DNA of 45,013 nt from contig CBCSLL010000017.1 of the NCBI GenBank assembly GCA_965140935.1, positions 161,104 through 206,116 on the forward strand. Direction: 5' to 3'. The notes below the pieces were generated by a model. It was given only the letters and a program-made list of their open reading frames with translations. It was not told the origin of the DNA and did not search any database. A program made the position numbers and the translations under genes. This DNA comes from Rotaria magnacalcarata (Eukaryota). Below, one piece after another: positions 5,250 through 45,013 of the stretch (positions are counted from its first letter, which is position 1; each line of letters opens with the position of its first letter).

Positions 5250-5620
5250 TATTTCGATAGTAGGATCCTATCGGATTCCGACAAGGGGCAGGCAATGAAT
5301 ATACCGAATATCATATGTGTTTCAACAAAAACCGACGAAATCTTATGGGATTCCTGGACACGGACCTACAGTAGGATCCTTGGTATCGGATCCGATGTCG
5401 GATTTTAACGGAATCCAACCCTATCGAATCACCCTTGCGCTGTGATGGCTCAAAATGTATATTTGATCGTGAATAAGAAAATGATTTTTTCCGGCGGAAC
5501 CGACAATAGGTCCGTGTCCAGGAAAATTCTATCGGATTTTGTCGAGGAGTCGAATCCCATAGGATTCGATAAGATCCGTTGTCGGATTCAGTCACCTGGG
5601 TATAATAGGTAGATTGTAGA
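5250..5620. repeat. Foldback / inverted-repeat element (MITE-like or hairpin locus)
   Basis: Perfect 16-bp inverted repeat CCTGGACACGGACCTA (5353-5368) / TAGGTCCGTGTCCAGG (5507-5522). Imperfect arms extend it (…cttatgggattc… / …gaatcccatagg…). Variants of TATCGGAT(T/C)C recur densely in both orientations. The segment is locally richer in GC than its flanks. Confidence 0.6.
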
Positions 5621-5913
5621 AGTCTCATACAAAAATATTTTCCATCAAATTCATTTCGACTTCTATTTCATCTATCGGTTGTTCGATTTCAAATTTTCGA
5701 TTGATCTGATTGCATAAATAGTTTAATAATAAATTCTAACAATCGTATGATAACTCTTCATTTACAATGCACTTCAACAAAATTTTCCTCCTCGTTTGTT
5801 CTTGATAGTGACAGCTACAGTTTGATTTCTAAAGAAAAATTTCAGGCTTCACTGCATCCTTTGATATATTTACCATGAATAATAAATACATCAACTTCTA
5901 AGAAAGAAAGAAC

Positions 5914-6340: not shown

Positions 6341-6350
6341 GGGGGGGGGG
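6341..6350. repeat. poly-G tract (G10, G13 if the preceding GGGA is counted)
   Basis: gggagggggggggg in DNA that is about 70% AT. Confidence 0.9.
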
Positions 6351-14242: not shown

Positions 14243-14258
14243 GGGGGGGGGGGGGGGG
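14243..14258. repeat. poly-G tract (G16) followed by CGGGC
   Basis: aagggggggggggggggggcgggctg. Confidence 0.9.
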
Positions 14259-36372: not shown

Positions 36373-36976
36373 TTTCTTTTGCTCACTATTTTGACTACTG
36401 TAGACGTTTGAAAGAATGAAATGTAAGTAAAAAAATAACCTGAGTATTTAAACACAAATGTCTGAAGCAAGAGAAAGAAATAACGTTGCACAAGTTAGAA
36501 GAAAGAAAAGCAAATAAACGTGACAGTATATTGATTCATGTTTAGCAAAAAAAAGGCAAATTGATAGCTGATGGTGTAAGAACAACTCGAATACTTGCAA
36601 AATCTTTTTTTTTCTTTCATGTTATTGCAAAAGCAGATAAATTTCACATGTGGATAAAGAACAGCGACTGCACAGCAAATTTATCTATAGTCGCGCCATC
36701 TATGCCAATGAAATGTAGATCGAAAAGAAATTTCTATATAGAAAATCAAATTAAAAAGAATTCAATATTGAAAAAAAATATTAAAAACCAGTTAAAAATG
36801 AAAGAGCTTCAGTAATAAACTTTGAGGACATTCGCTTAGCGACATGAATAATGTGGTGCCTTGTTCTACTCATCCAGTCAGCGGTAACCGCAAAAAATGA
36901 AACTATTAAGTCATAATCTCTTGATATTTTAGAGTAAAAAAATGTTCTTCGATAACTGACTCTTATTCAAACAATC

Positions 36977-37134
36977 ATGCGCGTTGATCCAATATCTAAA
37001 ATAACATCTGATGTTCAATGTGATTTCAGTTCTAAATATGATGATCATTGTCGTCAATATCATTTATTGCCTTTGTCAAGTGTAAAAATCAAACTCGATG
37101 CTGGAATTATTGATTTAGATACAGATAGTCTTCG
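36977..37134 (+). CDS. CEP78: CEP78 exon 1 (ATG 36977)
   Basis: …KYDDHCRQYHLLPLSSVKIKLDAGIIDLDTDSL parallels human CEP78 [33 protein letters not shown]. Donor TTCG|gtatgc. Confidence 0.8.
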
Positions 37135-37185
37135 GTATGCATCGTAAAATGTTTTCTTTTCTTCGCATAAAACCATTTCACTTAG

Positions 37186-37295
37186 ATTTGATGATTGGAC
37201 ACCATTGTGTTCGGCTATTGGTACATGTAAAACACTTCGTTCTCTTACATTACGTAGCCAATACTATAATTCATTGTCGAACAATTTTGCCGAAG
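37186..37295 (+). CDS. CEP78: CEP78 exon 2 (RFDDWTPLCSAIGTCKTLRSLTLRSQYY…)
   Basis: Human RGVDWAPLLSTL. Acceptor cacttag| at 37184-85, donor GAAG|gtttta. Confidence 0.75.
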
Positions 37296-37354
37296 GTTTT
37301 ACTTTTATAAAAAAAAATAAATTGACATATTTTTAATTCATTTCATTTATTTAG

Positions 37355-37539
37355 CTGAACGGCGAACATTAAAACGAGCTTCATCAGCTTCCAAACGTCC
37401 ACCAATATTTCAATCAAAAGAATTATTGTCAAAAATCTGTACACATATCAAGGACAGTTTATTGATAACAACAGAACTTGTTTTATTGGAATTCGATGGT
37501 CTTCCATTTCGACGTAAAGATCTAACCACATTAGCGCAG
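37355..37539 (+). CDS. CEP78: CEP78 exon 3 (…LVLLEFDGLPFRRKDLTTLAQ)
   Basis: Human …LELNGLILRERDLTILAK. Acceptor catttatttag|, donor GCGCAG|gtatag. Confidence 0.8.
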
Positions 37540-37590
37540 GTATAGAGAAATTAAAAGTTATTGTTTATCTTCAATTCTGATGGTTTTCAG

Positions 37591-37663
37591 GGAATTGCCA
37601 AATGTAAATCACTCGTTCATTTTCGTCTTACGAATAGTCCAATTGGCGATGAAGGACTTGATA
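37591..37663 (+). CDS. CEP78: CEP78 exon 4 (GIAKCKSLVHFRLTNSPIGDEGLD; LRR)
   Basis: Human [24 protein letters not shown]. Acceptor ggttttcag|, donor GATA|gtaaga. Confidence 0.85.
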
Positions 37664-37716
37664 GTAAGACGATTTGCTTTGTTAAAAACAAAAATGAAAA
37701 CCTATCTTTCTTTTAG

Positions 37717-37820
37717 TCCTTTGCCGACATTTGAATCAAGCACCAAAAATTCGTGAAGTCGATTTTTCAGCTTGCTCGCTCACCAGCCAAGGTGCACACA
37801 TTATTGCTGATCTTATCAGA
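37717..37820 (+). CDS. CEP78: CEP78 exon 5 (ILCRHLNQAPKIREVDFSACSLTSQGAHIIADLIR; LRR)
   Basis: Human [34 protein letters not shown]. Acceptor ctttcttttag|, donor ATCAGA|gtaagt. Confidence 0.85.
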
Positions 37821-38398
37821 GTAAGTTCATAGTTTAAAGAGCAAAATTTTTTATTGTAGTTACAAAAGTTCATACGAGATAAGCGAATAGACTTATGTAA
37901 TAAACCGAAGAAAAATAAAACACAGTACTGAATAAAGTTACATCGATTGACATAAATACTGATGTTAACAAATAATATTGATTGATTGTTATTAAAAATT
38001 TTCAAGTTCCAATGTATTATATTCTAATGTTGTTACATCAGTTTCACTGACAATATCTTCTTCATCGAAAAATCTTGTATGTAGTGGTTGAAAAAATAAC
38101 AGAAAGATAATCATCAATATAAGCATTGCAATAAATAAAAAACTAATTATAGCAGTTAAATGACCATATGACACGAAGAATTCTCCAGGAAAAAACGACG
38201 TCGTTTGATTATTCATTTTCGCGACTGAAAAAAACAAAGTACCCCATAGAACTGACTTGTAAGAGGAATCTACTACTATGGCAAAGAACGGAATTTTTCT
38301 TCTCGCTCGCGTGTTCAGTATATTTCATGACTTAGAAGAAACAGAATTATAAAATCATATGCAATGAACTATAAACAACTGGCGTTTGCTTTTTGTAG

Positions 38399-38597
38399 CA
38401 ACAAGGCAATCGACGTCATACAGATGTTTGGAAAGAAAGTCTTCGTCATCAACAAAAAGAAAGTTTACCATATCAAAATCCAATGCTTGATCATATGTCT
38501 GGTTTACGACGTGTAACACTCAATCGAAATTCATTGATTGCTGATCGCGGTGCAACATTTCTAGCTGAAGTACTAGAAGCCGATCTTTGGATTAAGG
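38399..38597 (+). CDS. CEP78: CEP78 exon 6 (…DVWKESLRHQQ…MSGLRRVTLNRNSLIADRGATFLAEVLEADLWIK)
   Basis: Human [50 protein letters not shown]. Acceptor ctttttgtag|, donor AAGG|gtaact. Confidence 0.85.
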
Positions 38598-39033
38598 GTA
38601 ACTATTTATTCGACGATAAATAATTTAATTATTTTGAAATTTCAATTCCGCCGAGATCTTATTTTGTTTTTATTAGAAAGCAAAATAAATTTGATGAAAG
38701 AATACAGTTTTCAAAAATTATTTATCTATTTTTTAAATCACAGTTGCTTATAGTTAAAAGAGATTAGTTCTTTTCTTTCATTCCTTTAATAGAATTAATC
38801 GGAAGTAGCTTTTTAGTTTCGACGAATGCTCTCAAAATTGATGAGATGACATACAATCATGTCATTCAGTGCAATGATTAAGCAGGAAATAGAATGTTTT
38901 CTTCTCTTTATTTTCCTTACGATATATTCGTAGTATCGTCCAAAAATTAATTAAATATTTGATTATGAAAACAAAAATTTCTCGATATGCTTTTGATCTA
39001 AGATAATAAGCGAATATTGGTTTTCTTTTTCAG

Positions 39034-39215
39034 CACTCGATCTTCAAGATTGCGCTATATCAACAAATGGTGCAAAAGAATTTTTAAATGCAGCTAAATA
39101 CAATAGTCTGATACATATCATTGATATTCGTAATAATCCTCTTGTCGATCGTGATATCATGGAGAAATTAATTGAACAATTGTTAATTAATTGTGAAGAC
39201 GATCGTTTGTGTGAA
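39034..39215 (+). CDS. CEP78: CEP78 exon 7 (ALDLQDCAISTNGAKEFLNAAKYNSLIHIIDIRNNPLVDRDIMEKLIEQLL…)
   Basis: Human [51 protein letters not shown]. Acceptor ttttctttttcag|, donor TGTGAA|gtttgt. Confidence 0.85.
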
Positions 39216-39268
39216 GTTTGTATTCGATTAAAGATAAAATAAGAATTCATTGCCTTGTTAAAATTTAG

Positions 39269-39483
39269 TATAAATGGTTAAAACTTGAATCTCCTCGACG
39301 GCCGCGTTCAAAAATTGCTCGAACAACGACAACAACTGGTGCTAATCGACCAGCTTATTTCAATCCCAAAACACCTGTTGATCCAGCTAAGTTACAACGA
39401 AGTAAATCCACCGGGTCTGTTTCAACTGAACCCAGAAGTGATGGAATACCATGGAGAACAGCTGCACGTGCAAGTCGATTACC
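39269..39483 (+). CDS. CEP78: CEP78 exon 8 (YKWLKLESPRRPRSKIARTTTT…DGIPWRTAARASRLP)
   Basis: Human [23 protein letters not shown]…GFLPWRTAERAKRHRG. Acceptor aaatttag|, donor TTACC|gtatgt. Confidence 0.8.
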
Positions 39484-39738
39484 GTATGTTTATATGTACA
39501 TAAAAAAAACAAATTCATTCTAAAAGGAAAGCATGACTAAGCACCTATCGAATTGATATCATTTTTACTTGTATATCAATATCCAAACTATTTCCTCATT
39601 TACATATTTTAAGAGTTGAACATGGATTATGGAAAGAGTCTTGAATATAAATTACTTGAATCGTTTGACAGATATAGCGGTTTTCTTTGTCTATCTATAA
39701 AGTGTTCATTTATTTGAGAGTCTCTTTGTTTCTCTTAG

Positions 39739-39850
39739 GGGATTTCCGCCCAAATTACCAACACGTGGTTTTCATTCATCAGAAGAATCGATTTATGGCA
39801 ATGGTATTGGTGGCGATTTGCAACAGCAACAATTGAAAGAAAATCCAATT
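39739..39850 (+). CDS. CEP78: CEP78 exon 9 (GFPPKLPTRGF…)
   Basis: Acceptor tctcttag|, donor CCAATT|gtacgt. Human GFPLIKTRD. Confidence 0.75.
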
Positions 39851-39904
39851 GTACGTTGCTTGAAAAAATCTGTTCGAAATTAGAGACATAGTTGATTGTT
39901 TTAG

Positions 39905-39982
39905 AGTCGAATTCAACGATTAGAAAGTAAATTACGCGAAGAGCGGCAAGCTAAACGACAATTAGAAGAACAACTTCAACAA
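39905..39982 (+). CDS. CEP78: CEP78 exon 10 (coiled coil SRIQRLESKLREERQAKRQLEEQLQQ)
   Basis: Acceptor gattgttttag|, donor CAACAA|gtaaaa. Confidence 0.75.
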
Positions 39983-40036
39983 GTAAAAGAAATGTTCTAC
40001 TTCGTATTATTAATGTTTTATCTATTTATTAATTAG

Positions 40037-40146
40037 GTTTTATCAAAAAATGATCTAGCACAACGAGAACAGGATCATTTTTGTGCAGTAGTAGAAAATA
40101 CATTTCAGAAATTTCAAAAATTTCTAGATTTTCTTAGATCAAAGCG
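40037..40146 (+). CDS. CEP78: CEP78 exon 11 (…VVENTFQKFQKFLDFL…)
   Basis: Human SIENSFQKFHAFLDLL. Acceptor ttaattag|, donor AAGCG|gtacat. Confidence 0.75.
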
Positions 40147-40201
40147 GTACATTTCTTTTTTTTTCAAAATTGATTTGAAAGAAAAATCCTTCTATTTACA
40201 G

Positions 40202-40406
40202 ATTGGGTGAATTAATAACAATGGCTGGCCTTGATGATGCATTTACTAATCCACTTGAAGAACGTCGTGAAACACCATTAAACGTTGCCAATGGATCGAA
40301 TACAAATCATCAAACGGTAGTTGCAGAAAAACATGATGAACGATTACAATCATCATCATCCTCATCATCAATATCAGGATCCATAGATACGAATATAAAA
40401 AGTTAA
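40202..40406 (+). CDS. CEP78: CEP78 exon 12, terminal (RLGELITMAGLDDAF… stop TAA 40404-06)
   Basis: Human LGQLATMAGIDQSDF. Acceptor ctatttacag|. The 12-exon model is 1731 nt, i.e. 576 aa. Confidence 0.8.
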
Positions 40407-40509
40407 TTTTGATTCTTTTGCTTTCCATTGCTCAACGATGCTCAACTGTTCGCTTTCGTTCTACACATAGCATCTCTTTATTAGTTCTGAATGTAATTTT
40501 GTTTCTTTT

Positions 40510-40537
40510 GTGTGAGTGTGCGTGCGTGTGTGTGTTT
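40510..40537. repeat. (TG/CG)n purine-pyrimidine alternating microsatellite
   Basis: tgtgtgagtgtgcgtgcgtgtgtgtgtg; alternating purine-pyrimidine runs of this kind have Z-DNA-forming potential. Confidence 0.8.
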
Positions 40538-41410
40538 GCTCGTTTCATATTTGGACAGTTTTGCTAATATTCTTGTTTGTTGTTTTTTTCTACTTCGAGT
40601 ACACGTCGTCATTCGATGACAAAGCGAACCGAAGAATGCTTTACTCAGTGAACGAATGTATAAAAAAAAAAGGAGAGATGCATATTAGATTATGTTCATT
40701 AAATATTTGGTTATTTTTCATAATAAATAATAATGTAGAATGGTTGAAAAAAATTCATCTCCATTTACAAAGTGAGTAGAATTACGACAATGTTTGACAA
40801 ATGTTCCAGTTGCGACAATCCCCATCCAGGAAACTAGAATATAACAATAGCTTCTTAATGACTTTACCATTCATAAAAGTCGTAGTAATTATTTTTCATC
40901 ATATCATATTCGTGTTCGCAATCAATTACAGAATTCAGAGACCAGGAATTTCTACTGTCAGTCTTACGGTACGCATCTGTCGTTTGCTCACAAGTACAAT
41001 TTCATTTCTTTTAGTACATTATCTCATTGCGATAGTTTTCTGAATGGTTAATATATTTTTCTTTAATTGTGAATAATAAAGCGTAGGCTAATTTTTAGAA
41101 ATGCAATAGTTCCAAGCGGACTAAAAAAGAATGCATATGCTAGATGTAACAAGCATTTGAAAATGTGAAACATATTTTTCGTAGGTTCTGTTGCGATTTC
41201 GGGCCCATGGACAGGCACTGAATTCCAAACACTGCGAAGTTTCGAGTAAACGAAAAGCAGATACAAATGGTGAAGTTGAATTTTGATTTCGTAAAATTTT
41301 TTCAAACATAGATTTTTATTCAAAATAGATTTTCCTTAATTTTCTAAAAGGTCTTTAACATTAAATGATGAAAAAATAAGAAGTGAGACCGAAATCTACA
41401 AGCGTTTTTC

Positions 41411-42225
41411 CTAGTGGCGTAACCAGAAAATTTTTGTAGGGGGGGGGGGGGGGGCATCCCCCCCGTTTTTAGAAAATGGAGTATTCTAACTATGGTTTTC
41501 CATCGTACCAGTTTGCCACGAATGATTTGTTTTCATGATTTTTTGGATATGAGCTGAGTTTAGGTTGAGCAGGTCGATCTTGGCATGAAATACTAACATC
41601 AATAGCATCACCAATTGTTTTATTATTGTTTTTTTCTGCATGTTGTATATTTTTCTGATTTTCCATATTGATGCTTTGAGACGACGTTATTCATGGTGTT
41701 TCAATAGGTTCATCAATATCAATAGTAACACGAGATGTATGTGAGTCGCGTGACTGTATAATAGCATTTTCATTATTAGCGTCATTTGTCTGTTCGTGAA
41801 GAGATTTACTCTTTTATTCAGTAGATAAAGAAAAAGAAAAATCAAGAGTTTTTCCTTTGCCATCGTCCATTATAGCCAAGGCTTTGCGTCGTGTACCGAT
41901 GAACAAGATTAACTCGAAATCGAAATGTGTGTGTAAAAGTATTTATACTTCACAGAACGCAATTAAATTAAATGTTCTTGTCTCTATTCGCTTTTTTAAG
42001 ATATGCATTGCTCTGATTTTACACTAATTGGTGTATATTTATGTATTATTATACACGTTAAAAAGTTCAAAGAACACACAAATATTGACTATCACCTTTT
42101 ATCATATTAAATTGGCATAGTGCACCGAATAATTTGTTCTCAAAATGATTGATTCATCTATGATTACAATGAAACGCTAAACTTTTCCTAGAGGGGGCTG
42201 AGCCCCGCTCTGGTTACGCCCCTAG
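41411..42225. mobile_element. 815-bp non-autonomous TIR element (MITE-like); 16-bp TIRs CTAGTGGCGTAACCAG / CTGGTTACGCCCCTAG
   Basis: The termini are reverse complements at 15 of 16 positions. Inside the left TIR: AAAATTTTTGTAG + G16 + CAT + C7. Inside the right end: a GC-rich segment GGGGGCTGAGCCCCGCTCTGG. No ORF lies between the TIRs. Confidence 0.6.
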
Positions 42226-43596
42226 TTTTTCCACTGATTTAGTTGTTTGAATCGTTGAAAAGATTAATAAGGATTGATTTTATGCTTTATCGTGTAAATT
42301 AATTATTTATCAAATAAGTTCTTTATTTCGTACTTGAAACTCGATAAAAAAAAGCCTTTTCTTTAGTTAGAGATGTCCAAAGTGTATTTTTCTTATTTTA
42401 TTTTGTAACTTATTGTGCATTTAAAAAAATGGCAATCTTCAAACTACTAATTAAGTCACCTATGTTTCAATCTCCTTATTGCTGCTCATTCGATAGATTT
42501 TGAAGATCGAATATGAAGCATCGATACGAAAAAAATCCTTTTCATCTTGATATCCTCGGGAAGACCCGTTAGACTGGTCGAAAGCTTTGCGTTTTACTGA
42601 CTTGTCGTCGAGCCATCTACGTATCAAAAATTAACAATTCAAGGAATCGGTTTTGAATGTTGATGCCCACGATACCCTCAAATCGGTGGGTCAAAATTGA
42701 AATGTCTATCGGAGAAGGGTCACTTGGTTGGTCATCGCTCATGGCTAAAGAGTAAAAGTAAATACTGATAAAATTTAAGTTTCTCACTCTCTAATCTTAC
42801 ACTACCTTGAAATCCCTCTCTCTATTTAATATAAGATCCAAAGCAAACCTTTTTCTCTCAATTGTTATCGTTTAGTCCTCAAATAGAATTTGAATGAAAA
42901 AACATTTAGAATGTGAATACAGTATAGTAAAGCTTGTGATTCTCGTGAATGGATTCATTTTTATCAAAGTAAATTGATGAAACGACTGTGATTGTAGGCG
43001 TAGGTGGCTAAACAAGTGGTGCAATTAATTGACATCAAAAGTGTTTTTATTTTTATTTGCTGCTACAATGTGTGTTCATAAATTTTTCCACATAATATTT
43101 CAAAATAACTCGTTTCATTAGTCTGCTCAAGAAAAATATATAGTGCTTAGAATAAGCCAATTATATTCTACATCATCTCGTTCCACTTTTATTTTTGCCC
43201 AAACGAAAGTTCATTTCGTTTTCTATTTTAGACATATATAATTTTCCTTACGAAAAATTTGTTCAGAAAATTTGGAACATGGATCGTTTTGAGATCTTGT
43301 CTATTTTTCTATACTGGATGGGTATTGTGGGTAAGTTTTATCGATAGGAATGATTTTCTCAAAAAACATATCCAGTTCTTTTTTTCTTAAACGTGAATCA
43401 CATATTCCCAGCGCAGTCGCGTAGCATAAAATTTTGATTTTTTTAGAAAAGACTACAGGGTATGAGTAAAGCGAAAATAAGAACCACACGTCAAGATTCG
43501 CTATAGTTAAAGATAGTTAAATAGGTTTTTCTTTACAATCGAATACATTTTTTTAAATAGTCACTACAGAAATCGATGTAACACTCGTCAAAAACA

Positions 43597-45013
43597 ATGC
43601 TACAGGTATTAATTGTAAAGGATTTAAAAAAAGGTTTTGTTTTATTCAAGATTCATTTAGTTACTGTCGCAACAACAAGTCTATGTGAGGTTTCTAATCA
43701 ATTCATGTGTATGGAAAGCGGCCGATGCATTGATAAAGAAAAGGTATGTGATACCAAAATTGAATGTAGATTTAATATCCAATCACACCCACGTCATAAT
43801 TTTATTTGAAAAAAACCATCAGTCGACAATCTAAAGAGATTTCTATTTAAGGTATGCGACTCTATTGTTGATTGCCAAAATGGTGATGATGAACGTTCAT
43901 GTAGTAGTTGTACATTTGATGGCGCACCAAGTTCTTTACGTGGTTGGATTGATGTTAGTAAAGGTTCACTCATGTGGAAACTTCGTACAAACGGAGTATT
44001 AGCCGCAGCTAATCAAGGGTCACCATTTGATCATACATCATATAGTCCTACAGGGAATTATATGTATTTATCAACATCGAATGGAACGACTTTAAATTCA
44101 TCAGCACGCTAAATAACACCTGTTCTTAGCCAAGCAAGTTCAACATGTCTTCTAGAATTTTTGGATTCACTTAACTGGCATTTCATCAAATCAATTGAAT
44201 GTTTTGTTATTAACTGATCATCAAACTGAACGAGCAATATTGCAACAATTTCATTTTCAAGCAATGACCAATTGGACAAACGTAAATATTCTAATTGATC
44301 GTGTTGATGTACCATTTCAAATATGATTTGATTCAAAACATTCAACAACACTTCGATGGGTTGCTATTAACGATACGAAAATCTCTCGTTGTCATTTACC
44401 TCCGATTGTTAATGCAAGTGAATGCCAAGCAGCAGATCGATTTCACTGTGCATGTGGTTCCTGTATACCTAAAGTTCGTATTTGTGATACGACTGATGAT
44501 CGTGGCGATCATTCCGATGAATCAAGTCGTCTATGTGCATCGTATCAAACATATACATTTAATATATCATGCTGTGATTGGATACATGATAATTCAGCAC
44601 AATTTAAATGGGCATTAAATCGAGGACCATCGCCATCGCATGAAACTGGCGTATGTCGATTTCTATTTGAATATGAATTTCATCAATTTAAATGATCGTG
44701 TTTTTTGTTCTCTTTTCACTTCTAGCCGAATCGTGATCATTCAACTGGTTATGCACCGGGTCAATATGCTTTTATTGTAGCATCATTTCCTCAATTACCA
44801 GGGCATACAGCACGTTTAATTAGTCGAGCATTCCAACCGAGAAAACATCAAGTTGTCATCTGGTATTCTATTGTCATATGTTAGGCGCAGACAGGGGCGT
44901 AAGTCAGGTCTCAGAGCAGGGGGGGGGGGGGGCGTAACTCCAGGGGGGGCGCGAGCAACCAAAGATGGGGGGGGGGTCTTTACAAATTTTACTTTAAAAA
45001 TTTTTTGAAAGGG
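43597..45013 (+). pseudogene. LDL-receptor class A / MAM-domain repeat gene (MALRD1 / apical-endosomal-glycoprotein-like), with a disrupted reading frame. Continues past the window end
   Basis: LDLa modules: CEVSNQFMCMESGRCIDKEKVCDTKIEC…VCDSIVDCQNGDDERSC and ECQAADRFHCACGSCIPKVRICDTTDDRGDHSDESSRLC. MAM-like segments: FDGAPSSLRGWIDV…PFDHTSYSPTGNYMYL… and …WTNVNILIDRVDVPFQI… However, an in-frame TAA at 44110, a frameshift near 44215, a TGA near 44331 and another TGA near 44694 interrupt what should be continuous MAM domains. I found no GT…AG introns that bypass them. Confidence 0.45.
44895..45013. repeat. Second partial copy of the poly-G-associated terminus family (GGCGTAA[GC]T[C]CAG next to G14, G7, G10 and AAAATTTTTT)
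   Basis: ggggcgtaagtcagg…G14…gcgtaactccag G7…G10 tctttacaaattttactttaaaaatttttt. Compare the left terminus of the 41411 element (GGCGTAACCAG AAAATTTTTGTAG G16). It runs off the window. Confidence 0.5.

Follow-up and report, generated by a model that had tools for sequence, protein, structure and literature searches.

A short non-autonomous element, probably deletion-derived from a hAT transposon, in a Rotaria genome

The locus

The window, by which we mean the whole 45,013-nucleotide stretch of DNA analysed, has about 30% G+C throughout. Its animal genes include an inward-rectifier K+ channel gene (22.8-24.1 kb), a TEP1-like TROVE/NTPase/WD40 gene (27.6-36.4 kb) and an LDLa/MAM gene (43.6-44.9 kb; positions 43600-44891) in which Pfam identifies two MAM domains and one LDLa domain. 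The LDLa/MAM gene looks like a pseudogene: it has two in-frame stop codons (TAA in place of an expected Leu, TGA in place of an expected Trp), its frame shifts twice, and the LDLa motif has a Cys-to-Arg replacement. About 1 kb upstream of its first exon lies the element that is the main subject here, an 813-bp unit at 41412-42224 whose own orientation is the minus strand. The far end of the gene is broken by the terminus of a different element, at 44892-45013.

TEP1-linked loci from two related rotifer assemblies (L006 and L007; loci fetched for comparison carry L numbers) are syntenic with window positions 36400-40750, at 70-83% DNA identity and approximately 80% protein identity. An earlier note on this DNA had proposed a search for an empty insertion site; in this synteny the alignment ends abruptly at approximately 40750, short of the element, and the 4 kb beyond, containing both transposon insertions and the apparent MAM pseudogene, has no counterpart in either assembly.

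Two further G runs occur in the same G+C-poor DNA, G16 at 14243-14258, which is followed by CGGGCTGAAAA, and G10 at 6341-6350; no GGCGTAA motif is found near either.

Boundaries and target-site duplication

The earlier note described an 815-bp unit, 41411-42225, with 16-bp inverted-repeat ends, CTAGTGGCGTAACCAG (41411-41426) and the reverse complement of 42210-42225 (CTAGGGGCGTAACCAG), matching at 15 of 16 positions. The inverted-repeat ends are real and match to that extent, but the interval is one base too long on each side. Inspection of the flanks, which the note had recommended, revealed identical 8-mers (8/8), GTTTTTCC, at 41404-41411, where the left copy abuts the element end, and at 42225-42232. 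From local base composition, the chance of such a match at fixed positions is approximately 4e-5. C41411 is the last base of the left copy and G42225 the first base of the right copy, and because this perfect duplication includes both bases, they are excluded from the element. The 'CTAG' proposed as a family hallmark must be shortened in the same way, its leading C being a duplication base; the hallmark is TAGGGGCGTAACCAGA without the C.

The corrected 16-bp terminal repeats (TAGKGGCGTAACCAGA) read TAGTGGCGTAACCAGA and TAGGGGCGTAACCAGA; they are identical at 15 of 16 positions and start with TAG(G/T)G. The 5′ repeat, with the minus-strand reading TAGGGGCGTAACCAGA, occupies 42209-42224 and is defined by pairing with the other end. 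The 3′ repeat, which reads TAGTGGCGTAACCAGA on the plus strand, occupies 41412-41427 on the minus strand and is defined both by this pairing and by other copies, since the same 16-mer (TAGGGGCGTAACCAGA; TAGTGG in L014) terminates L001, L003, L009, L011, L012, L013 and L014. The single mismatch between the window repeats is the TAGTGG variant, and L014 carries that variant at each of its ends. Termini of hAT transposons typically begin YARNG, and the window repeats fit this form.

At three or fewer mismatches the window contains only two matches to the terminal 16-mer, and two matches were obtained in none of 100 shuffles. A repeat search returned arms of 17 nt (41411-41427 and 42209-42225) that are 94% complementary. 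The earlier note had worried that the repeats might be part of a larger segmental inverted duplication, a concern that is removed by the lack of any inward extension of the inverted repeat past 16-17 bp.

A clean duplication is found at the window copy only. In L001 and L014, the other copies for which each end is available, the 8-bp flanks do not match; possible reasons are decay, adjacent insertions or recombination between copies. For the window the predicted empty site is GCGTTTTTCCACTG, reconstructed in context as ...AAGCGTTTTTCCACTGATT.... In DNA scans the terminal repeat had no matches in collections of viral or prokaryotic genomes, as expected for a eukaryotic element.

The transposase remnant

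The earlier note reported no ORF, and there is indeed no long open frame in the element (none exceeds 58 aa). What had been missed is a stop-interrupted remnant of a transposase N-terminus at 41469-41870 on the minus strand, recognized by translation and homology and consisting of 133 codons and a terminal TAA, with three internal stops. Its translation is MDDGKGKTLDFSFSLSTE-stop-KSKS...RPAQPKLSSYPKNHENKSFVANWYDGKP-stop-LEYSIF-stop, the tail reading ...NKSFVANWYDGKP-stop-LEYSIF. Between the remnant and the 5′ end structures is an untranslated 5′ leader (41871-42189, minus strand) that aligns with the leaders of L001 (89%), L005 (92%), L009 (66%) and L014 (60%).

A word-indexed protein search with the remnant found five short proteins, four of them 68-88% identical to it and the fifth 51%; one is from R. 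magnacalcarata, one from R. socialis and three are from ENA or JGI metagenomes. A search of 1.84 billion representative proteins, using a profile built from related short proteins, recovered P0096, a 395-aa R. sordida protein with the Pfam domain DUF4371 and the UniRef name 'TTF-type domain-containing protein'. Residues 1-129 of P0096 match the remnant with 54% identity over 132 residues (E 2e-45), and the match runs through ...RSFMSKWYEGRPWLEYSI inclusive. Beyond the matched part P0096 enters a zinc finger (EKNSTYCYYCRHF...), and the window copy has no finger. The closing motif of the remnant, ...RSF..W....PWLEYS, we take to be the opening of a TTF-type finger. A Pfam scan of the remnant alone gave nothing significant and returned no TTF-type finger model, and a protein-pattern scan of JGI metagenome contigs gave 600 pattern matches, none of which was confirmed.

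Long relatives and the internal deletion

P0096 is encoded at L009 and L008, both from R. sordida assemblies, and the next gene model there carries PF05699, the hAT dimerisation domain, which was confirmed on the ORF at L009 2529-3593 (E 2.7e-8). Downstream of the L009 coding region comes ...AAAAGTGGGGGGCAGAGCCCCCCACCCCCCCTACGAGAATTTTCTGGTTACGCCCCTA, and this sequence shares 83% identity with the final 58 bp of the window element. L009 and the window element align in two blocks. In the first, element positions 133-750, comprising the leader and the first 129 codons, align with L009 633-1234 at 66% identity; in the second, element positions 756-813, the same last 58 bp, align with L009 3730-3787. 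The intervening L009 1235-3729, approximately 2.5 kb, has no counterpart in the window element, which is therefore a 5′ end joined to a 3′ end.

L013 (Rotaria sp. Silwood2) is 96% identical to L009 and has the same terminus, and its 692-aa product combines DUF4371 with an RNase-H-like region and the hAT dimer domain; the 5′ terminal repeats of both L009 and L013 are beyond the contig ends. L014 (R. magnacalcarata, 2.7 kb) has TAGTGGCGTAACCAG at both ends and a 451-aa transposase remnant between them. P0119 and P0121 each have DUF4371, the RNase-H-like region and PF05699. The models matched by the longer relatives are DUF4371, FAM200-ZBED5_RNase-like and Dimer_Tnp_hAT, and more annotated relatives come from R. 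socialis, R. magnacalcarata, Rotaria sp. Silwood1, Silwood2, Didymodactylos carnosus and Adineta steineri.

The earlier note had also suggested looking for an autonomous copy. Longer relatives bearing a transposase were found, but among those recovered there is no intact copy with a single ORF, L009 being split into three. At the DNA level even the nearest long relatives reach only 60-78% identity with the window element, so its true parent is not among them.

A foldback element lies in the 5′ leader of the long R. sordida copy, at L009/L008 39-636, with 109-nt arms that are 95% complementary and internal AATGCATT repeats; both contigs end there.

The definition of hAT elements includes terminal repeats of 10-25 bp, an 8-bp target duplication and deletion-derived short copies (PMC3942097). 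The window element has 16-bp repeats and a perfect 8-bp duplication, the latter missing at L001 and L014; a transposase with PF05699 and an RNase-H-like core is present in its relatives only, the window copy itself lacking these domains. We are confident that 41412-42224 is a non-autonomous copy of the hAT superfamily, an internal-deletion derivative of a longer hAT, belonging to a bdelloid rotifer (Rotaria or close). It is an ordinary hAT and not a new kind of mobile element.

The earlier note had proposed a new MITE family. Much of that description holds, in that the unit is a non-autonomous mobile element, bounded by terminal repeats and a duplication, and a member of a repeat family; what does not hold is the novelty, since a coding relative exists and is a hAT. 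The strict version, a true MITE family of unknown origin with no coding relative, moved by an unrelated or unknown transposase, has the general appearance of the element in its favour: at 813 bp it is short enough, although at the upper edge of MITE length, it is AT-rich inside and near a gene (approximately 1 kb from the gene start), it has no frame above 58 aa, and it has both terminal repeats and a duplication. We nevertheless judge that version very improbable, because approximately 400 bp of the element is a recognizable remnant of a transposase N-terminus, because longer hAT copies can be aligned with it in the leader and at the 3′ end, and because the usual MITE definition excludes visible coding capacity or a visible coding origin (PMC3942097). 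An identifiable coding remnant and a traceable parent type set the element apart from strict MITEs.

Copies of the short form

Five other copies at more than 86% identity were found across public data. L001 5660-6470 (R. magnacalcarata, 89% identical to the window copy) has the same architecture from end to end. Contig ends cut the copies in L002 (R. socialis, 87%), L003 (JGI metagenome, 91%) and L005 (ENA metagenome, 92%), of which the last diverges just before the junction, and L004 (ENA metagenome, 90%) diverges in the middle of the remnant. In JGI metagenome contigs, a DNA scan for the 21-nt 3′ end yielded only the contig-end fragments L011 and L012. That the sequence belongs to a repeat family, as the earlier note had claimed, is borne out by these copies in other genomes.

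The deletion junction, ...TTAGAATACTCCATTTTCTAAAAACGGGG (also read ...TGGTTAGAATACTCCATTTTCTAAAAACGGGG...), is identical in the window, L001 and L002, and L003 has the same junction as the window, split by a nested insert. The flanks of the window, L001, L002 and L003 are unrelated to one another. From the shared junction and the unrelated flanks it follows that one deletion took place before the spread, and that the 0.8-kb form multiplied as a unit. These observations bear on the idea that the insertion at this site was of a full-length hAT, whose middle was lost there afterwards, so that the short form never transposed. Deletions of that sort are common for DNA transposons, and a perfect duplication is equally compatible with one, but one and the same junction recurs in R. 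magnacalcarata, R. socialis and a JGI metagenome contig, each time between unrelated flanks, and this makes such a history most unlikely for this copy.

In the reading that we favour, the short form arose as follows. The parent was a hAT of more than 3 kb, whose transposase combined a TTF zinc finger with DUF4371 and the hAT dimerisation domain. An internal deletion, estimated from the R. sordida relative, removed approximately 2.5 kb, keeping on the 5′ side the terminal repeat, G/C palindrome, leader and first 133 codons (approximately 750 bp), and on the 3′ side (approximately 58 bp) an A-run, G/C palindrome, A/T spacer and terminal repeat. It may have been caused by faulty repair, acting on short stretches of similarity (ACTYCA...GAAAAA) that lie on either side; in long copies both parental sides of the junction have ACTYCA...(G)AAAAA, a pattern compatible with deletion between such stretches. 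If general hAT biology applies, the short form would be moved in trans, by cut-and-paste, by the transposase of a full-length relative. That transposase would bind the 16-bp terminal repeats together with the adjoining internal repeats, excise the element and reinsert it through an 8-bp staggered cut. What is directly observed is the anatomy, the N-terminus homology, the common 3′ terminus, the junction at other sites and the 8-bp duplication at this one.

The nested insert of L003 (441-830, approximately 390 bp) has C13 and G8 ends and lies inside the WLEY/S codons; L005 diverges at the same base (615-638), into a different C-rich sequence. The site could harbour a different small element with G/C-run ends, or could be an insertion hot spot. 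Just outside the 5′ end of L001, at 5620-5659, is a degenerate, head-to-head terminus-like sequence (TCATGTGGCGTATCCAAGG; TCATGTGGCGTATCCAAGGTACCTGAAATTTTTTCG); this is a copy with no duplication.

G/C palindromes near the ends

Inside the left end the earlier note had recorded AAAATTTTTGTA, G16 (41439-41454), CAT and C7 (41458-41464), and regarded them as a G:C module capable of forming a hairpin. The positions are correct and the module folds, with a 7-bp stem. In the orientation of the element this G16-CAT-C7 palindrome (41439-41464, minus strand) belongs to the 3′ end, where a conserved A/T spacer, AAATTTTTGTA (41428-41438, minus strand), connects it to the terminal repeat. The 5′ end has its own G/C palindrome, AGAGGGGGCTGAGCCCCGC (42190-42208, minus strand), which folds into a stem of nine pairs, and GGGGCTSAGCCCC-like palindromes are found at the 5′ ends of L001, L010 and L014 too.

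Seven 3′ ends and two 5′ ends were covered by an alignment of element ends. The order of parts is the same in all aligned 3′ ends: the 16-bp repeat, AAAATTTTCGTA, a G run, a CTNNG-type loop, a C run and TTTTT, with a AAAATTTTCGTA-like spacer in seven of seven. The module is G7-CTTTG-C6 in L001 and L003, G7TG6-CTCTG-C6 in L009, G4AG9-CTCAG-C6 in L011 and G7-CTCAG-C10 in L012. The length of the G run differs between copies, from G7 to the uninterrupted G16 of the window; the runs of L009 and L011 have 14 bases with one interruption each. We infer that the window G16 is a length variant of the conserved G/C palindrome with no function of its own, and its length may be a homopolymer assembly error.

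Hairpin energies were not exceptional when compared with shuffles of the same composition (z -0.6 to -1.7), and no Rfam family matched anywhere in the window. These results weigh against the proposal that nothing mobile is present, whether the structure is taken as a palindrome arisen by chance, as a portion of some larger inverted segmental duplication, or as a locus for a structured RNA or a regulatory hairpin. The hairpins do exist, and G/C hairpins in AT-rich DNA can look functional. However, the inverted repeat stops after 16-17 bp, the interior is asymmetric and transposon-homologous, and copies are present elsewhere, so that with the energies and the Rfam result we give this proposal practically no chance.

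The palindromes are conserved through shared descent; they may also have a role in transposase binding. The stronger proposal that the palindromes and their variable G/C runs are structure-forming sites (hairpin or G-quadruplex) needed for transposase recognition, or else fragile ends, is in our opinion a long shot. Contigs often break at the element ends, which is compatible with fragility, as is the telomere-like tract of L013 described next. Were the fragility idea true, a DNA transposon would be connected with the breaking and healing of chromosomes in an asexual animal that tolerates DNA breaks.

In L013 (Rotaria sp. Silwood2, CAJNUA010009702.1) an approximately 100-bp (CCCACA)n tract at 2884-2990 starts at the first base past the hAT 3′ end; beyond the tract the sequence is unique. 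The tract complements TGTGGG, presumably the bdelloid telomeric repeat, and may be an interstitial telomere-repeat addition at the element end. Only this tract and the variable G/C palindromes are less than ordinary among the features described.

Relation to known elements

Deletion-derived, non-autonomous hATs have been described before, such as the BuT2-derived short copies and Mar in Drosophila (PMC3942097, PMC3517528). The relation of the window element to its long relatives is that of maize Ds to Ac, the two ends of a full-length element being joined by an internal deletion. Ac/Ds and the deletion-derived hATs also have in common with it short terminal repeats, an 8-bp duplication and amplification of the short form as a unit, as well as dependence on transposase supplied in trans, which for the window element is likely rather than observed. 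It differs from Ac/Ds in its terminal sequence, TAGGGGCGTAACCAGA, in the G/C palindrome with a variable G/C run inside each end, and in its host, a bdelloid rotifer, in which its mobility is predicted from sequence.

Transposases of hATs with a TTF zinc finger and DUF4371 are kin of ZMYM1, FAM200 and ZBED5, in a Buster/Charlie-like branch. The closing motif of the remnant and the domains of its relatives agree with this group, unlike which the window copy retains the pre-finger part only; its family may belong to either the Buster or the Ac branch. Target consensuses for the Buster and Ac branches were reportedly given by Arensburger and colleagues in 2011, and GTTTTTCC fits neither of them well.

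DNA transposons and MITEs are known to be regular components of Rotaria genomes, and the element adds a small data point on transposon dynamics in these asexual bdelloid rotifers (PMC7943196). Otherwise it has little importance beyond annotation, where exact boundaries, orientation, superfamily and origin become available for one repeat that would probably be left unclassified, or be called a MITE, in a de novo repeat library. It can be entered as a Ds-like derivative of a TTF/DUF4371 hAT, common to several Rotaria species. With its perfect duplication and near-intact terminal repeats, the window copy is usable as an insertion-polymorphism marker.

A second terminus

The element that breaks the LDLa/MAM gene starts with CAGGGGCGTAAGTCAGG at 44892 on the plus strand and runs off the window at 45013. 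It is separate from the 813-bp element. The earlier note was right that a terminus motif recurs here, GGGCGTAA being present at 44895 and 44930 beside G14, G7 and G10, but had used it as the evidence for its repeat family. For that purpose it fails: the two sequences do not align beyond a 10-base core, AGGGGCGTAA, and G runs, which are all that they have in common. Within the terminus GGGGCGTAACTCCAGG is repeated 35 nt further in (GGGGCGTAAC core). No inverted partner was found in the window or in any fetched locus. The insertion interrupts an exon and splits a conserved motif of the second MAM domain midway, directly after ...SSCHLVFYCHMLGAD. The CAGGG start and the repeated core suggest a related hAT-like family, at most a cousin of the 813-bp element.
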